Shown: positions 18,726 through 47,052 of the stretch, piece by piece
Layout of the letters: every line of letters begins with the position of its first letter
How positions within the stretch are numbered: position 1 is the stretch's first letter
Assembly: GCA_035714445.1 (NCBI GenBank)
Contig: DASTLY010000146.1
Location: forward strand, 17,730 to 81,729
DNA: 64,000 nucleotides
DNA from: Mycobacteriales bacterium
GTDB taxonomy: Bacteria; Actinomycetota; Actinomycetes; Mycobacteriales; SCTD01
Direction of reading: 5' to 3'
Made by a program: the position numbers and the translations under genes
The notes under the pieces: model-generated
Told to the model about the DNA's origin: nothing
The model's database searches: none
Seen by the model: the letters and a program-made list of their open reading frames with translations, nothing else

Positions 18726-19730
18726 TCATCCTGCGCCGTCCGGACCTGCGGCGAGGGCCGCCCGCACCTGCGCGGGGGGCAGCAGGCCGTCCAGCGCGGC
18801 CAGCAGCAGTTGCGCAAGGCCGTACCCGGGATCGGTCGACAGCGCCCGCTGCACCGCGACGAGCGCCAGCGCCCCGTTGCCGTGCGCGTACGCCACCCCG
18901 GCGAGCACGGCGCAGAGCGGTGCGTCGTCGGGCGGCACGACCCCGCGGGACAGCTGCCCGAGCAGCCCGAGGAGCGCGTCGCGGCGCGGCCCGCTCCAGG
19001 ACAGGACCGCGTCGCGGACCTCGACGACGTGCAGTGCCAGGGCGAGTGCCGCGGCGTCTGCCGGCGGCAGCGGCGCGGGCCGGCTCTCCCAGCTGTCGAG
19101 GGCCCGGCGCCACCGGTCCAGCTCCGCGTCGCCGCGCCGGCCGGCGGGCCGCCGCCCCTCGAGGGCCTGCCGGGCCTGCGCCTGCAGCCGCCGGGCGAGG
19201 GCGGCCCCGAGCGGCGGCTGCGGCGCCACGCTCGCGACCAGCTCCTCGCGGGAGGCCAGCACGGCCCTCCCGTCGTACGCCTGCTCGCTCGCGGCCGCCG
19301 TGACCAGCGCGCTGCCGGTGTCCACCGGCCGGCCGGTGGGCGGGCAGCACGGGGCGGTGCACGAGTAGGACCACCAGCGGCCGCCGCGCACCAGCAGCGC
19401 CTCGGTCACCTCGATGCCCCGCCCCGCCAGCGCCTGCTCGACCTCGGACACGAGCTCGGACCAGGGATGCCCGTCGACGCCCGGCTCGTGGCTGTGCACC
19501 ACCAGGACGGCCGCACGGGCACCGTCGCGGACCAGGCCCTCGCCGATCTGCCGGATCAGCAGCGGCACGTCGGCGAGGTCGGCCCGCACGGTCAGGCCGA
19601 TCCGCCGCCGCGGCCCCCGCAGGCTGAGGACGACCAGGCTCTCGCTCGGCGCGAAGCCCACCAGCCGGGGCACGAGGGCCGCGAGGTCGCCGGGATCGCG
19701 GCAGGTCAGCACAGGTGCGGGGACGGTCAT
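18726..19730 (-). CDS. DUF4192 domain-containing protein
   Basis: The protein is 334 aa. The N-terminus ...PGDLAALVPRLVGFAPSESLVVLSL and the Cys cluster WWSYSCTAPCCPPTGRPV match my memory of the actinobacterial DUF4192 family. Confidence 0.75.
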   Translation of the reverse strand: MTVPAPVLTCRDPGDLAALVPRLVGFAPSESLVVLSLRGPRRRIGLTVRADLADVPLLIRQIGEGLVRDGARAAVLVVHSHEPGVDGHPWSELVSEVEQALAGRGIEVTEALLVRGGRWWSYSCTAPCCPPTGRPVDTGSALVTAAASEQAYDGRAVLASREELVASVAPQPPLGAALARRLQAQARQALEGRRPAGRRGDAELDRWRRALDSWESRPAPLPPADAAALALALHVVEVRDAVLSWSGPRRDALLGLLGQLSRGVVPPDDAPLCAVLAGVAYAHGNGALALVAVQRALSTDPGYGLAQLLLAALDGLLPPAQVRAALAAGPDGAG

Positions 19731-19775: not shown

Positions 19776-19838
19776 CCCGACCTGTGGACGCCGCCCGACC
19801 TGTGGACGCCGCCCGACCTGTGGACGGCGCTCGACCTC
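19776..19838. repeat. 18-bp tandem direct repeat, 3 copies plus a partial fourth
   Basis: CCCGACCTGTGGACGCCG occurs at 19776-19793 and 19794-19811 (identical). CCCGACCTGTGGACGGCG is at 19812-19829, followed by CTCGACCTC. The array lies in the 119-bp gap upstream of the DUF4192 gene and downstream of the SDR gene. Confidence 0.95.
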
Positions 19839-19849
19839 CGCCCAGGCCG

Positions 19850-39885: not shown

Positions 39886-39955
39886 TCCACAGACTGTGGA
39901 GGACCGCGTCCACAGGATGTGGAGAACTACAACCGTGTAAGCACTAGATGTGGTG
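39886..39955. promoter_or_regulatory. Three NrdR boxes upstream of nrdR-nrdJ
   Basis: The boxes are TCCACAGACTGTGGA (39886-39900), TCCACAGGATGTGGA (39909-39923) and GCACTAGATGTGGTG (39941-39955). Each is a palindrome or near-palindrome of the CACwAgATgTGG type. The centres of boxes 2 and 3 are 32 bp apart. Confidence 0.8.
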
Positions 39956-41959: not shown

Positions 41960-42328
41960 CTACGCCGCGGCGGGGAGCAGCAGCTGGTGACCGGTCTGCA
42001 CCGCAGCCGTCGGCAGGTGGTTGAGCCGACGCAGCTGCGCCACCACCTCGCGGGGGTCGCGCTCCGGGGCCACCCGCCGGGCGATCGACCAGAGCGTGTC
42101 CCCCTGCTGCACCGTGACCTGTGTCAGGGCAGGGGCCGGCACCGGTCCGGGCCCGGTCGCCCGGCTGCTCGCCGAGCGGCCTGCGGCGAACGCGCCCAGC
42201 ACGATCAGCACCAGGATGAGCAGCACCAGCAGGTATCCACGGGTCGTCAGGTGCACCCCCGCTCGGGAGCGGGGCACGGCGGCAGGTGCGGGCCGGTGCG
42301 TGCGGGTGCGGGTGGCGATGCTGCTCAT
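41960..42328 (-). CDS. LysM peptidoglycan-binding membrane protein (Rv2719c-like, SOS-regulated)
   Basis: ATG 42328 follows GAGGGAGAG. It has a single TM helix (GYLLVLLILVLIVLGAF) and a C-terminal LysM domain (VTVQQGDTLWSIARRV...LRRLNHL). It is divergent from lexA, as in mycobacteria. Confidence 0.85.
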   Translation of the reverse strand: MSSIATRTRTHRPAPAAVPRSRAGVHLTTRGYLLVLLILVLIVLGAFAAGRSASSRATGPGPVPAPALTQVTVQQGDTLWSIARRVAPERDPREVVAQLRRLNHLPTAAVQTGHQLLLPAAA

Positions 42329-42364
42329 CGGGCTCTCCCTCGGTTCGTCACGTGCCCGGTGTCC

Positions 42365-42396
42365 CCGAACGCGCGTTCGATCGAACGTCTGCTCGA
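42365..42396. promoter_or_regulatory. Two abutting LexA (SOS) boxes
   Basis: CCGAACGCGCGTTCGA is at 42365-42380 and TCGAACGTCTGCTCGA at 42381-42396. The actinobacterial consensus is TCGAAC-N4-GTTCGA. The boxes lie 37-68 nt upstream of the LysM gene. Confidence 0.85.
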
Positions 42397-42433
42397 AGTT
42401 GTACCGCACGGGTCCGACAAAGTCGCGACACGT

Positions 42434-42449
42434 TCGAACAGATGTTTGA
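42434..42449. promoter_or_regulatory. LexA (SOS) box upstream of lexA
   Basis: TCGAACAGATGTTTGA has one mismatch to TCGAAC-N4-GTTCGA. It lies 73 nt upstream of the lexA GTG 42522. Confidence 0.85.
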
Positions 42450-42521
42450 GTTCGAGCCCGGACAGGTCTAGCGTTCGGCCGTGATCACGGGGCGACAGCC
42501 CCACGAGCTGAGGAGCCAGAC

Positions 42522-43223
42522 GTGTCGACGAAGGAGCCCACGACGGTGCGCAACCTGCCCGATGGGCCGGCGGACGAGGCCGGGCTGACGCCCCGCCAGC
42601 GCAAGGTGCTCGAGGTCATCCGGGAGTCGGTCGAGCGCCGCGGCTACCCACCCACGGTCCGGGAGATCGGCGTAGCGGTCGGTCTTACCAGCACCTCGAG
42701 CGTGTCTCACCAGCTGATGACGCTGCAGAAGAAGGGGTTCCTCCGTCGCGACCCCAGCCGGCCGCGGGCGGTCGACGTGAGGCTGCCCGGCGACGCCGCG
42801 GCCGCCGACCGCGCCGTCGACGAGGCGGCCGAGCGGGCCGCCCATCCGCAGCCGGCTTACGTCCCCGTGCTGGGCCGCATCGCGGCCGGCGGACCGATCC
42901 TGGCCGAGCAAGCCGTCGAGGACGTGTTCCCGCTCCCCCGTGAGCTGGTGGGAAGCGGCACCCTGTTCCTGCTCAGGGTGGTGGGCGACTCCATGATCGA
43001 GTCAGCGATCGCGGACGGCGACTGGGTCGTCGTGCGTCAGCAGCCCGCCGCCGAGAACGGCGACATCGTCGCCGCGATGATCGACGGGGAGGCGACGGTC
43101 AAGACGTACAAGCGGCACGGCGGACACGTCTGGCTCATGCCGTCAAACGCGAACTACGCGCCGATCGCGGGTGACAACGCCGTCGTCCTCGGGCGGGTCG
43201 TCACGGTGCTCCGCAAGGTGTGA
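42522..43223 (+). CDS. lexA: LexA repressor
   Basis: The protein is 233 aa. It has a winged HTH ([44 protein letters not shown]), the cleavage site region [14 protein letters not shown], and the S24 peptidase Ser/Lys (GDSM ... VKTY). Confidence 0.96.
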
Positions 43224-43229
43224 GCCGCA

Positions 43230-43263
43230 GGCCGGCCCCACGGGTCAGCCCGTGGGGCCGGCC
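43230..43263. terminator. 15-bp-stem hairpin shared by convergent lexA and the PKD-like gene
   Basis: GGCCGGCCCCACGGG-TCAG-CCCGTGGGGCCGGCC is a perfect inverted repeat starting 7 nt after the lexA stop. The right arm encodes the last codons of the minus-strand gene. Confidence 0.7.
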
Positions 43264-44126
43264 TCCAGCTGGGTCCGGGCCTGCTCGACCGGCAGCTGCT
43301 GAGCCTGGCCAGGCACGTCCGCCTCGCCGTCCAGCTCGTAGACGGTGGGGCTGTCGCCGATGGTGAACGTGCCCGTGTAGAAGCACCGCAGCGACACCGA
43401 CATCGGGCCCGCGGTCCGGTAGACGTGCTCGGTGCGCAGCGCACCCGGGCTCGCGGACGCGGTCTGGCCGTCGCCAAAGACCCAGACGTAACGCGAGGCG
43501 CTCACACTGACGGTGACGGGGTAGCCGAGGATGGTGCGGGGCGGCAGCGCGAACTGGGCCGGCATGTCACTGGTGAACAGCGTGACCGCCCCGGCCAAGG
43601 TGCCCGCTGCTGGCTGGGTCGTCACAGTCGCCGCCGGAATTGGGTACGAGCGCCATTCACGACGGACCTGCGCCTCCACCGCGATCAGTGGATCGACGCC
43701 GGGTTGGTCCGCGCCGTAACACTCCACGCCGGGCCGGCGCACCGGAGCGCCATAAGCGCCGCTTACCTCGTTCCACGTTTGCACGTACACCCAGAACTGG
43801 ATGTCGCCCTCAACGTCGCAGCTGTTGAGGGCCAGCCCACACAACCCGTTCGCCTCGGTCGCGCTATTGCCCGGGCAGGTCGGCACGTAGACCAGCCGCG
43901 GAGGATGCGCGTCGATCGGCTGGCGACGGCCGATTGGTTCTCCTGGGCCACTTGGGGAGCCTGGCCTGCAGGTCGGCAGGCCGGCGTGACAAGACACGCC
44001 ACGACATCTTCCTGGCGGTTCGGGTGGCCCACAACTCGAAGCAGCGACTGCCTCTGGTGCCAAGATCGCCAAGGGGCCCGCGAGCAGGAGGAGGAGACCG
44101 GCCGCAAGGCGCTTCCGCTTCGTCAT
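43245..44126 (-). CDS. Secreted Cys-rich protein with PKD-like C-terminal domain
   Basis: ATG 44126 gives MTKRKRLAAGLLLLLAGPLAILAPEAVAA, a signal peptide. About 10 Cys occur in the first 120 mature residues. The C-terminal RYVWVFGDGQTASASPGALRTEHVYRTAGPMSVSLRCFY resembles the PKD WxFGDG...HxY signature. G+C is lower than in the flanks. Confidence 0.65.
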   Translation of the reverse strand: MTKRKRLAAGLLLLLAGPLAILAPEAVAASSCGPPEPPGRCRGVSCHAGLPTCRPGSPSGPGEPIGRRQPIDAHPPRLVYVPTCPGNSATEANGLCGLALNSCDVEGDIQFWVYVQTWNEVSGAYGAPVRRPGVECYGADQPGVDPLIAVEAQVRREWRSYPIPAATVTTQPAAGTLAGAVTLFTSDMPAQFALPPRTILGYPVTVSVSASRYVWVFGDGQTASASPGALRTEHVYRTAGPMSVSLRCFYTGTFTIGDSPTVYELDGEADVPGQAQQLPVEQARTQLEAGPTG

Positions 44127-44695
44127 CCTTGATAGAATTCGGTCACGAGCCACCGACCTGATGCGTTAGAGACTTCAGTGTGTAGTGTCGCCTCGGAAAG
44201 CGCGGGAACCGTTTCGATTAGAACGTCGTTTCTATCGTAGGCGTCGAGTCGTTCGTAACTGACCCTAGCTGAAACGGTGGTTGCTTTCGACTCTAACGGC
44301 GGCGCTACCGCGTCAACTATTGAGATGCGGCCACCGCGGTAAGACTCACCTGCCGCTGCGGATTGCCTGAGGGAGGCTACGTGATTCGCGCACGATCTAC
44401 AGCCCGGCGCCGCTAAGTCAGCGATCGCCGCTGAGTCAACCCGGCGATAGGCGTCATTCAAGACGTCCACCCAATACAGAGCAAAGGCGGTGGCGCTTTC
44501 AGCAGAGCCGTCGCCAACCGGTGGTGGTAGCGGCAGGTTACTGACCGGGCCCGGCGTCGGAGCGGCAGAGGCAGCCGAGCCGGTGGTTGGCGCAGCGGTG
44601 CCTAATGGCGGCAGCACCGCGGGGGACGACGTCGGCTCCGACCCGCACGCGGACAGGACAAGGCCGAGAGCCAGAGCTGGGACAAAGCGTTGCAT
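44123..44695 (-). CDS. Lipoprotein, DUF6318-like
   Basis: ATG 44695 gives MQRFVPALALGLVLSAC with a lipobox (LSAC), then a Pro/Ser/Thr linker. A globular domain follows, with FALYWVDVLNDAYRRVDSAAIADLAAPGCRSCANHV. The stop overlaps the downstream ATG as ATGA. The 3' half is markedly AT-richer than the rest of the window. Confidence 0.65.
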   Translation of the reverse strand: MQRFVPALALGLVLSACGSEPTSSPAVLPPLGTAAPTTGSAASAAPTPGPVSNLPLPPPVGDGSAESATAFALYWVDVLNDAYRRVDSAAIADLAAPGCRSCANHVASLRQSAAAGESYRGGRISIVDAVAPPLESKATTVSARVSYERLDAYDRNDVLIETVPALSEATLHTEVSNASGRWLVTEFYQG

Positions 44696-44857
44696 CGCGG
44701 CAGCGTAGGTGCCGCAGCCCCCACCCCCCGGATGCCTGTGGACAGTCACCCGAATGGCCCAGCCTTGTCGGCGGCCCGCCTGCAACAGCCCGCAGTAGGG
44801 GGCGGCACCCACCACCGTAAGCACGGCCCCACGCCGTGCAGCCCGCCCGCGATGACG

Positions 44858-45538
44858 CTAGCCAGGCAGCTGCCCGACGACCACCAGTCGCCCATCGGGG
44901 TCGCGGACAGCCACCCCCATGCGCTGCCAGTACGGGTTCGCCGGCGTCTCCGCGGAGACGCCGGCAGCCACGAGCCGGTCGCGGACGACCGCGACATCGG
45001 CGGCGGTCGGCAGGTACACCACCAGCAGGTCGTCACCGGTGGCCGCGACCGGCGTCGCGCCACCGGCGGTCAGCTCCAGCTGCGCGCCGCCCGGCAGGTC
45101 GATGATGACCAGCTCGAAGGGCGTCGCCGCGTGCGGGCCGTCGAAGGCGAAGCCCAGCAGGCGGCCGTAGAAGGCGACGGCCGCCGGGATCGAGCGGGTC
45201 GGGTGGGCAACCCGGGTGCGCACCCAGCGCAGGTCGGGCAGCTCCTCCAGCACGGAGGTGCCGGCGGCGGACGGGACCTCCCAGGACTCGTGCACCCGCA
45301 GGCGGCCGTCGGCCAGCAGCTCCAGGCGCGCCTCGGCGCGCCCAACGGTGATCACGCCGTTGCGCTCGATCTGGCTGAAGCCGAACTCGAGGTCGGCCCC
45401 GTCGCGGCGACCGGCGAGGGTGCCGGCCACCACCGAGCCACCGGAGTAGCTGGCCGTGACCGTGCCCTCGCGGTCCTCGCGGAACGTCAGGACCCGGTCG
45501 GCCTCGGTGAAGCGTCGGCCGTCGAGCGAGGGGATCAA
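44858..45538 (-). CDS. VOC (glyoxalase/bleomycin-resistance fold) family protein with an N-terminal extra domain
   Basis: The C-terminal half VAHPTRSIPAAVAFYGRLLGF...VAVRDPDGRLVVV fits the VOC fold. The start is uncertain: the TTG at 45538 overlaps the hflX stop. Confidence 0.7.
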   Translation of the reverse strand: MIPSLDGRRFTEADRVLTFREDREGTVTASYSGGSVVAGTLAGRRDGADLEFGFSQIERNGVITVGRAEARLELLADGRLRVHESWEVPSAAGTSVLEELPDLRWVRTRVAHPTRSIPAAVAFYGRLLGFAFDGPHAATPFELVIIDLPGGAQLELTAGGATPVAATGDDLLVVYLPTAADVAVVRDRLVAAGVSAETPANPYWQRMGVAVRDPDGRLVVVGQLPG

Positions 45539-47052
45539 GGGCTGGCGTACGCCGAGAGCTCGACGGCGAGCTGGCGGCCGACGCGCGCCGACAGGTGGGT
45601 GCCCTCGCCGAGGTGCTCCTCGGTGAGCACCTCGCCCTCGGAGTGGATCCGGGAGACCAGGGCGCCGGAGACGTACGGCAGGACGACGTCGACGAGGACG
45701 TCGGGGTGCGGCACCTCGTCCTCGAGGATCTGCAGCAGCTCGGGCAGTCCCTCGCCGGTCTTGGCAGACACCAGCACGGCGTGCTTCTCGCGGCGCTGCA
45801 GACGGCCGAGCACCAGCGGGTCGGCGACGTCTGCCTTGTTGACGACGACGACCTCGGGGATACCGGCGGCGCCGATGTCGGCGAACACCCCGCGTACGGC
45901 GGCGAGCTGGCCCTCGGGGTCGGGGTGCGAGCCGTCGACGACGTGCAGGACCAGGTCGGCGCCCGAGACCTCCTCCAGCGTCGACCGGAACGCCTCGACG
46001 AGCTGGTGCGGCAGCAGCCGGACGAAGCCCACCGTGTCGGTCAGGGTGAACTCGCGGCCGGCCGGGGTCTGCGCCTTGCGCACGGTCGGGTCCAGGGTGG
46101 CGAACAGCGCGTCCTCGACGAGCACACCGGCGCCGGTCAGCCGGTTGAGCAGCGAGCTCTTGCCCGCGTTGGTGTAGCCGGCGATGGCGACGCTCGGCAC
46201 CGAGTTGCGCTCGCGCTCCTGGCGCTTGACGTCACGCGCCGTCTTCATGAGCTTGATCTCGCCGGCCAGCTTGGCCTTGCGGCTGCGGATCCGTCGCCGG
46301 TCGGTCTCGATCTTGGTCTCGCCCGGTCCGCGGGTCCCGACGCCGCCGGAGCCGGAGCCGCCCGCGCCACCGCCCTGCCGCGACAGGCTCTCGCCCCAGC
46401 CACGCAGCCGGGGCAGCATGTAGGTCATCTGCGCCAGCTCGACCTGGGCCTTGCCCTCCCGGGAGGTGGCGTGCTGGGCGAAGATGTCGAGGATCAGCCA
46501 GGTCCGGTCGATGACCTTGACCTTGACGATCTCCTCGAGGCTGCGCAGCTGGCCGGGGGTCAGCTCGCCGTCGCAGATGACGGTGTCGGCGCCGGTCGAC
46601 AGGACCGCGTCGCGCAGCTCCTTGGCCTTGCCCGAGCCGACGAACGTCTTCGGGTCCGGCTTCTCGCGGCGCTGCGCCAGCCCTTCGAGCACCTCGCAGC
46701 CGGCGGTCTCGGCCAGTGCCTGCAGCTCCGCGAGGGAGTTCTCCGCGGTGGTCGCGTCGCCGGTGTAGACGCCCATGAGCACGACGCGCTCCAGCCGTAG
46801 CTGGCGGTACTCGACCTCGGAGATGTCCTCGAGGTCGGTGCGGATGCCGGCGACGCGGCGCAGCGACTGACGCTCCTCGAGCTCGAAGCCTTCGCCTTCG
46901 AGGTCGTGGAACAGCTCGTCGGGCAGCTCGCCGTCGAGGTGGATGGTGGGGTCGGAGACCGGGGAGGCAGGTGCAGCAGTCATCGACTGGTGAACGCCGC
47001 GCGCTGGTGTCGTCATCCCGATCAGAGTGGCACGCTTGGACGCCGAAAGCAC
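45535..47052 (-). CDS. hflX: GTPase HflX
   Basis: It has the HflX N-domain (DRTWLILDIFAQHATSREGKAQVELAQ), then G1 GYTNAGKSSL, G3 DTVGF and G4 NKAD. Confidence 0.94.
   Translation of the reverse strand: MLSASKRATLIGMTTPARGVHQSMTAAPASPVSDPTIHLDGELPDELFHDLEGEGFELEERQSLRRVAGIRTDLEDISEVEYRQLRLERVVLMGVYTGDATTAENSLAELQALAETAGCEVLEGLAQRREKPDPKTFVGSGKAKELRDAVLSTGADTVICDGELTPGQLRSLEEIVKVKVIDRTWLILDIFAQHATSREGKAQVELAQMTYMLPRLRGWGESLSRQGGGAGGSGSGGVGTRGPGETKIETDRRRIRSRKAKLAGEIKLMKTARDVKRQERERNSVPSVAIAGYTNAGKSSLLNRLTGAGVLVEDALFATLDPTVRKAQTPAGREFTLTDTVGFVRLLPHQLVEAFRSTLEEVSGADLVLHVVDGSHPDPEGQLAAVRGVFADIGAAGIPEVVVVNKADVADPLVLGRLQRREKHAVLVSAKTGEGLPELLQILEDEVPHPDVLVDVVLPYVSGALVSRIHSEGEVLTEEHLGEGTHLSARVGRQLAVELSAYASP

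Follow-up and report, generated by a model that had tools for sequence, protein, structure and literature searches.

Does a stretch of low guanine-plus-cytosine (GC) content between two core genes mark DNA that arrived recently from elsewhere, or a resident locus that varies in place? The question is raised by two minus-strand genes that lie between lexA and hflX in a 64,000-nucleotide stretch of DNA from an uncultured Mycobacteriales bacterium (GenBank assembly GCA_035714445.1, contig DASTLY010000146.1, positions 17,730 to 81,729), the whole of which is here called the window. The first, geneA, encodes a predicted lipoprotein of the DUF6318 family and the second, geneB, a predicted secreted, Cys-rich protein with a PKD-like domain. 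An earlier note on this DNA had taken the pair for a horizontally acquired islet, possibly flanked by a duplicated insertion target. This interpretation is partly supported by our analysis: the pair is accessory, but it is not a recently inserted islet with a duplicated target. With a probability of about 0.6, we instead favor an obligately paired envelope module whose core is swapped as whole alleles by homologous recombination and which would thus be a miniature replacement island.

The closest relatives of the window are uncultured Frankiales/Mycobacteriales metagenome-assembled genomes (MAGs), with HflX proteins 77 to 91% identical; loci are given below by their L numbers. Across the genomes that carry the pair, HflX and LexA are 80 to 92% identical, while identity is 25 to 50% for geneA and 29 to 61% for geneB. 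Two genomes, L013 and L021, share about 95% nucleotide identity over some 6 kb and have HflX proteins that are 99% identical, with the exception of a block of about 550 bp (L013 12089-12640) in which identity falls to 37 to 60% and the GC content is 0.52 to 0.63 in both; besides this block, short indel-rich intergenic stretches also diverge. The variable block, about 0.6 kb in length and sharply bordered, consists of the mature DUF6318 domain and the first 60 to 75 codons of geneB. Synonymous (dS) and nonsynonymous (dN) divergence between L013 and L021, estimated by the Nei-Gojobori method, are 0.22 and 0.005 for hflX, 0.18 and 0.007 for lexA, 0.24 and 0.041 for geneB from codon 76 to its end, and 0.35 and 0.086 for geneA codons 1 to 58, whereas within the block they reach 1.54 and 0.60 (geneA from codon 59 to its end) and 1.50 and 0.80 (geneB codons 1 to 75). 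A roughly sevenfold jump in dS at sharp borders implies that the alleles of the block are much older than the split between the two genomes. Judged by sequence, these alleles are predicted to be exchanged or retained whole and not made by recent protein-level acceleration.

When L015 is compared with L025 (93.9% nucleotide identity in hflX), the left border again falls about 175 nt into geneA, and the window aligned with L083 has an identity trough of 0.30 to 0.43 at 43980-44270. Six short-read contigs end in or beside the block (L008, L010, L025, L039, L085, and L086), and such breaks are consistent with population-level polymorphism.

Homologous recombination is the route by which replacement flexible genomic islands are exchanged; these typically code for exposed structures and have been linked to phage pressure (Lopez-Perez, Martin-Cuadrado and Rodriguez-Valera 2014, PMC4033161). 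The block shares with them the occupation of one locus by highly divergent versions of the same kind of product, sharp borders, an excess of synonymous divergence, putative recombination in the flanks, and products that are predicted to be exposed. Whereas those islands are multigene glycosylation or O-antigen clusters with different gene sets, the block spans about 0.6 kb and parts of two genes, and its alleles are homologous, with the same DUF6318 fold. The whole module is, moreover, present or absent between genomes, unlike the islands, and its link to phage is a putative one.

The composition of the locus follows the block. The lowest 300-bp GC content of the window (0.57, against a mean of 0.743 and a standard deviation of 0.040) falls at 44101-44400, and the earlier note's hand counts of G+C in three 60-nt lines (31, 32, and 46) are exact. 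GC content at third codon positions (GC3) is 0.62 in geneA and 0.81 in geneB, where it rises from 0.63 in codons 1 to 75 to 0.88 in codons 76 to 293; most neighboring genes have 0.93 to 0.97. Taken with the 300-bp minimum, this gradient means that the drop, which had been described for all of 43230-44860, is real yet not evenly spread, being concentrated in about 43900-44520, while the 3' two-thirds of geneB is near host composition. geneA also contains three TTA (Leu) codons, at codons 31, 94, and 134, as opposed to none in the 16,098 codons of 34 other open reading frames (ORFs) of the window; its homologues have none or one. In 10 of 12 genomes the GC minimum of the locus, taken over about 21 kb, falls within the pair, and the GC3 of geneA homologues is 0.58 to 0.81 throughout (in Arthrobacter, 0.64 versus 0.80 to 0.84 for the neighbors). 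As nearly all carrier genomes, an Arthrobacter plasmid included, have the dip at one and the same position within the pair, low GC content is a property of the block everywhere and not the trace of one recent import.

To establish how the pair is distributed, 80 loci were collected in a genome scan for HflX, and the 45 that carry both hflX and lexA were assessed with tblastn and profile hidden Markov models (HMMs). The pair lies inside the hflX-lexA interval in 11 of these (L002, L003, L009, L013, L015, L021, L027, L038, L041, L045, and L070) and near but outside it in another 4 (L007, L033, L039, and L048); the remaining 30 have no pair at the locus. Three further contigs, additional to the 45, end within geneA directly after hflX (L008, L010, and L025). 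In many relatives the interval is otherwise tight, with only 30 to 60 bp between the hflX and lexA stop codons in several that lack the pair (L006, L016, L020, and L022 among them), and in L005, L014, L016, and L039 it holds a glyoxalase gene alone. Protein-based and metagenome searches added L083, L084, L089, L090, and L091, with the order glyoxalase-geneA-geneB-lexA wherever flanks are present, and a metagenome scan with a narrower alignment (A4) gave three loci. Either glyoxalase-pair-lexA or hflX-pair-lexA is the gene order in L002, L003, L009, L013, L021, L027, L083, L084, L089, and L091. Among the genomes closest by HflX, L016 (91%) and L005 (88%) have no pair, and L002, L003, L089, and L091 (89 to 91%) have it. 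This patchy presence at one slot makes the pair accessory, yet it keeps a single syntenic slot across many species-level genomes.

The two genes travel together. When HMMs of both families were used, a geneB-type ORF was found directly downstream, on the same strand, of all 19 non-truncated DUF6318 hits. The pairing extends to a different taxonomic order, namely to plasmid NZ_AP024658.1 of Arthrobacter sp. NicSoilB11, where the gene for a DUF6318 family protein (WP_223993950.1) precedes that for a hypothetical protein matching geneB, and to a 1.0-Mb Arthrobacter replicon (megaplasmid), so that the co-occurrence of the pair in other contexts, which had been proposed as a check, holds without exception. 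The translational coupling read from the ATGA overlap of stop and start codons is present in the window, and the 4-nt overlap is usual among homologues, L003, L013, L027, L033, L083, and L085 included. In L041 (12264-15242) two tandem copies of the pair occur, each with its own TCCACAG promoter, and L045 (11570-15158) may contain a second, inverted copy.

Upstream of geneA, 15 loci share a promoter architecture that reads G-TCCACAG-G, 27 to 29 nt, TAnnCT, 6 to 7 nt, start codon. TAnnCT lies 6 to 7 nt (9 nt in one case) before the start codon in all 15 homologous loci, and of the 14 matches to the composite pattern in the window and 1.25 Mb of loci, every one stands before a geneA-type lipoprotein. 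In the more distant L070 and L088, TCCACAG stands 39 nt from the -10-like hexamer, about one helical turn farther. The short distance between this hexamer and the start codon suggests a leaderless transcript, and the TCCACAG promoter probably drives both genes as one leaderless operon, the heptamer itself probably being a regulator-binding site. Other roles for the upstream region were considered and rejected. As a -35 element, TCCACAG would have too long a spacing (27 to 29 nt), and nothing is conserved at 16 to 18 nt; as an NrdR half-site it lacks the second half, whereas the nrdR-proximal sites are full palindromes (TCCACAGnnTGTGGA); and SOS control of geneA is not indicated, as there is no GAAC-N4-GTTC box upstream. 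A consensus promoter and terminator scan of 42300-45600 gave no match.

Related elements occur elsewhere in the window. At 19782-19840, on the minus strand, three tandem 18-bp repeats (TCCACAGGTCGGGCGGCG) are followed about 30 nt later by TAGGCT, beyond which a DUF4192 gene (18726-19730) begins. Both the heptamer and its distance from a TAnnnT hexamer agree with the geneA promoters, and the two may have a shared regulator. Between nrdR (minus strand) and an LPG_synthase_TM gene, at 39886-39923 (also L089 7273-7310), the palindromes TCCACAGACTGTGGA and TCCACAGGATGTGGA resemble NrdR boxes upstream of nrdR-nrdJ and contain the TCCACAG half-site.

geneA begins with a signal peptide and lipobox, MQRFVPALALGLVLSAC, in which M-Q-R and a hydrophobic stretch lead to L-S-A-C with Cys17, in agreement with the pattern [LVI][ASTVI][GAS]C; a Pro/Ser/Ala-rich linker and the DUF6318 domain follow. 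These features make the product a predicted membrane-anchored lipoprotein. It scores 25.7 bits (cut-off, 23.8) against DUF6318 (PF19843), an actinobacterial family of unknown function, over residues 52 to 186 and model positions 13 to 156 of 158, and the family is likewise matched by 8 of 9 locus homologues and by all 61 database relatives. A word-seeded search with geneA found no homologue; relatives emerged only by exhaustive HMMER comparison with 1.84 billion representatives, which returned 1033 representative relatives at E ≤ 1e-3. The best of these is 50% identical, making geneA a very divergent member of the family. Its relatives are lipoproteins of about 180 to 200 amino acids with an invariant CxxC, found in all 150 of the best 150, of which at least 119 also have a lipobox-like motif. 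Cys99 and Cys102 of this CxxC (44390-44401) are the sole invariant positions in the 61-sequence geneA alignment, and with the retention of the DUF6318 match in every aligned relative they show that the variable block is still under constraint. In geneA alignment A5, Cys17 varies hardly at all, and the lipobox, the CxxC, and Trp182 are kept. Weak matches to Tim44 and ARC6-IMS hint at an NTF2-like fold; profile searches of Protein Data Bank (PDB) sequences with the geneA alignments returned lipoprotein signal peptides only and no sequence-related solved structure.

In geneB, a Sec-like signal peptide is followed by a disordered Cys/Pro-rich N-terminus (residues ~30 to 75), a small alpha/beta domain with four conserved cysteines, C84, C96, C103, and C136 (residues ~77 to 160; 43647-43898), and a PKD-like Ig domain (residues ~165 to 285; 43272-43634) that bears a YVWVFGDG...HVY motif. 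An AlphaFold2 model from a 12-sequence alignment has a predicted local distance difference test score (pLDDT) of 80.9, exceeding 90 for residues 71 to 280, and contains a PKD-type Ig-like beta-sandwich with the WxFGDG motif. The top Foldseek match is the PKD domain of the collagenase ColG, 4aqo (template modeling score, 0.76, target-normalized; probability, 1.00), and the geneB profile matches the ColH PKD domain with an E value of 8.8e-6. The C-terminal ~120 residues share the Ig-like sandwich and WxFGDG...HxY with the clostridial collagenase PKD domains (4aqo, 4jrw, and 9lrk); unlike ColG and ColH, geneB lacks a catalytic domain, and it scores below the Pfam gathering thresholds (PF00801, 19.9 versus 23.5 bits; PF18911, 20.5 versus 27 bits). 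PKD Pfam matches are nonetheless found in 9 of 10 geneB homologues, with a best E value of 1.6e-6. In the description that the earlier note had given of a Cys-rich, PKD-like secreted protein, the signal peptide, the fold, and the motif hold, and the number of cysteines is 9 (8 within the first 136 residues) instead of about 10. Foldseek searches of the PDB and BFVD matched only the PKD part, to PKD domains and to phage Hoc-like or PKD proteins; the N-terminal alpha/beta Cys domain had no structural match in either. No match to PADLOC or PHROGs models at E ≤ 0.01 was obtained, nor any match to NCBIfam.

Recent arrival of the two genes from a lower-GC donor, by an insertion that separated lexA from hflX and duplicated a hairpin target, would account for the atypical composition and codon usage, and it fits both the absence of the pair from the closest relative, L016, and from L005 and the presence of one homologous pair on an Arthrobacter plasmid. 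Of the two similar hairpins thought to bracket the pair, the one between lexA and geneB is real and strong, with a 16-bp perfect GC-rich stem of -52 kcal/mol (z = -6.4), and is probably a bidirectional terminator without a U-tract. The other, at 44825, folds at the level of shuffled sequences (z = -1.0 and -1.8), and the similarity between the two is at chance, as the window contains 5 copies of the shared 9-mer GGCCCCACG, where 4.06 are expected, and the longer pattern has no match at the other site even when two mismatches are allowed. At the empty sites (L016, L005, L014, and L039) nothing resembles the flank sequence and nothing is att-like. The duplication is largely refuted. The marks of an integrative element or classical genomic island (an integrase or transposase, an att site or tRNA, direct repeats) are likewise lacking: tRNA and Rfam scans of the whole window were empty, no integrase or transposase is found among the called neighbors, which are core genes, there is no significant flanking repeat, and phage sequence searches gave no match to the pair. 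A single recent import is also contradicted by at least six diverged genomes that share the slot (glyoxalase-pair-lexA), the upstream element, and the low-GC dip within the pair, by the 3' part of geneB, which is already host-like in GC3, and by the geneB family, so far found only in Actinomycetes of similar GC content. We consider this origin quite improbable.

Decay in situ is unlikely as well. A weakly expressed, drifting pair under relaxed constraint and AT-biased mutation, possibly on its way to pseudogenes, would have low GC3 and TTA codons, be skipped by gene callers as geneA is, be lost often, and include frameshifted copies such as those of the L002, L015, and L045 MAGs. However, the frameshifted copies come from long-read MAGs, in which indel errors are common, and the window, L009, L013, L021, L027, L083, and L084 all have intact ORFs; the lipobox, CxxC, Trp182, and 4-nt overlap are conserved, and dS rises about sevenfold, at sharp borders, inside a transcript of which both ends are conserved. 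Very little speaks for a polymorphic toxin/immunity or other antagonism pair in which the block would set cognate specificity. The block straddles the gene junction, as in modules of a toxin C terminus and its immunity gene, and has a lower GC content than the conserved parts, and the weak NTF2-like hints in geneA point the same way, but there are no matches to toxin, immunity, or defense families and no secretion-system genes nearby, both proteins stay in the same family in every allele, and the variable part of geneB is the disordered Cys/Pro-rich N-terminus and not an enzymatic C-terminal tip. Targeted hypermutation of the kind caused by diversity-generating retroelements (DGRs), or cassette gene conversion from silent copies, could produce extreme local divergence with sharp borders and is scarcely credible here. 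Within the 64-kb window there is neither a paralogue or silent copy of the pair nor a repeat of the block that could serve as its template, and the called neighbors include no reverse transcriptase. DGR variable regions are typically adenine-restricted and 100 to 150 bp long, whereas the divergence seen here includes indels, involves all base types, and covers about 600 bp over two genes. Decay, antagonism, and hypermutation thus lack their own defining components, and recent insertion is contradicted on both duplication and recency.

The exchange of whole alleles that we favor would take place in a chromosomally resident envelope module of Actinomycetes, composed of a CxxC lipoprotein (geneA) and a coupled secreted protein (geneB), both exported according to their predicted signals. 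In this uncultured Frankiales/Mycobacteriales lineage, the pair sits in the variable gap between the convergent hflX and lexA and has been lost from many genomes. The block comes in many deeply divergent allelic forms and would be replaced whole by homologous recombination, with crossovers in the conserved flanks, that is, in the geneA promoter, signal peptide, and linker on one side and in the body of geneB on the other. It may encode a surface that is exposed, or one through which the two proteins interact, and be subject to diversifying (frequency-dependent) selection, by phage for instance or through other recognition. The GC content of bacterial genes correlates positively with intragenic recombination (PMC4450053), and the low GC content of the block could be kept since divergent alleles, having no internal recombination, would escape GC-biased gene conversion, and/or since they would circulate in a shared allele pool.

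As the variable block runs from the DUF6318 domain into the Cys-rich N-terminus of geneB, with an invariant CxxC and coupled translation, the two segments may interact, perhaps, speculatively, via disulfide chemistry. A more specific proposal is that the block forms an allele-specific interface between the geneA CxxC and the geneB N-terminus, possibly a disulfide tether, and serves as a polymorphic envelope recognition determinant (a phage receptor, a decoy, or a self/non-self marker) that is widespread in Actinomycetes but has been overlooked because gene callers skip or truncate both genes; we put it forward tentatively and regard it as rather doubtful. Proteus IdsD/IdsE and Myxococcus TraA/TraB are polymorphic recognition pairs. 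geneA and geneB resemble them in being adjacent genes with variable regions and, possibly, in allele-specific envelope recognition, and differ in having no sequence or fold relationship to either, so that cell-cell recognition is here an analogy.

Several points weigh against the exchange of whole alleles and the roles attached to it. Identities over the core alone (37% for L013-L021; 40% for L013-L010 and L013-L027) are too saturated to prove tree incongruence, and local hypermutation would also saturate dS. Recombination is deduced from two pairs of closely related genomes, and many of the MAGs were assembled from long reads and contain frameshifts; a pair missing from a 20-kb locus, moreover, may still be present elsewhere in that genome. 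Surface exposure, the interaction of geneA with geneB, and the involvement of phage are putative. The single-sequence AlphaFold model of geneA has a pLDDT of 40, its fold being hinted at solely by the weak Tim44/ARC6-IMS matches, and a literature search found no mention of DUF6318. A downstream PKD-like partner, a promoter element, and hypervariability of DUF6318 genes were not found described in the literature searched.

The replacement of whole alleles turns a generic call of horizontal transfer from low GC content into a specific, testable picture. With it, DUF6318 gains an obligate partner gene, a conserved promoter element, and an invariant CxxC inside a hypervariable domain. The locus has the behavior of a replacement island in miniature, and loci of this kind are poorly documented among soil actinobacteria. 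Were the block a recognition determinant, it could be used to probe the specificity of phage-host or cell-cell encounters in uncultured Frankiales-like bacteria; a homologous pair is available in cultivable Arthrobacter strains. The features of the locus are collected in Table 1.

Table 1. Features between and around lexA and hflX in the window. The borders of the hypervariable block were transferred from the comparisons of L013 with L021 and of L015 with L025.
Feature	Position	Strand	Remarks
lexA, core flank	42522-43223	+	Converges on geneB
GC-rich stem-loop between convergent lexA and geneB	43223-43270	Strand-neutral	geneB stop codon in the loop
geneB	43245-44126	-	293 amino acids; predicted secreted, Cys-rich, PKD-like
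Hypervariable low-GC block	43902-44521	-	GC content 0.618; geneA codons 59-190 and geneB codons 1-75
ATGA stop/start overlap of geneA and geneB	44123-44126	-	Translational coupling
geneA	44123-44695	-	190 amino acids; predicted DUF6318 lipoprotein
-10-like hexamer TACGCT (TAnnnT)	44702-44707	-	6 nt before the geneA ATG
Upstream heptamer TCCACAG	44736-44742	-	Conserved across geneA-type promoters
Glyoxalase/YycE-like gene	44858-45538	-	GC3 0.94
hflX, core flank	45535-47052	-	Upstream of the glyoxalase gene

The pair has fared poorly in annotation. In the JGI annotation (contig Ga0334941_0000104), geneA is uncalled and geneB is shortened to 213 amino acids; the ENA/NCBI annotation of L002 likewise leaves geneA uncalled and shortens geneB, and NCBI shortened the Arthrobacter geneB. 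Public geneB calls are cut to 213, 162, and 254 amino acids (loci listed as L001, L002, and L087), and both genes are presumably miscalled owing to their atypical composition. Because pipelines omit geneA and shorten geneB, database homologues of geneB are few (about a dozen), and an exact-sequence look-up of full-length geneB found no match because JGI had called the shorter product. Both families are therefore under-represented in protein databases, an annotation blind spot that affects several genomes.

Two neighbors of the pair deserve mention. The glyoxalase/YycE-like gene is accessory in its own right within the hflX-lexA gap, present only in some relatives, with a host-like GC3 and a 5' end that overlaps the hflX stop codon by 4 nt; its identity is 39 to 74% across relatives in which that of HflX is 80 to 91%. 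On the other side, between lexA and a divergent LysM gene (41960-42409, minus strand), the sequence TCGAACAGATGTTTGA at 42434-42449 is a near-consensus actinobacterial SOS box.

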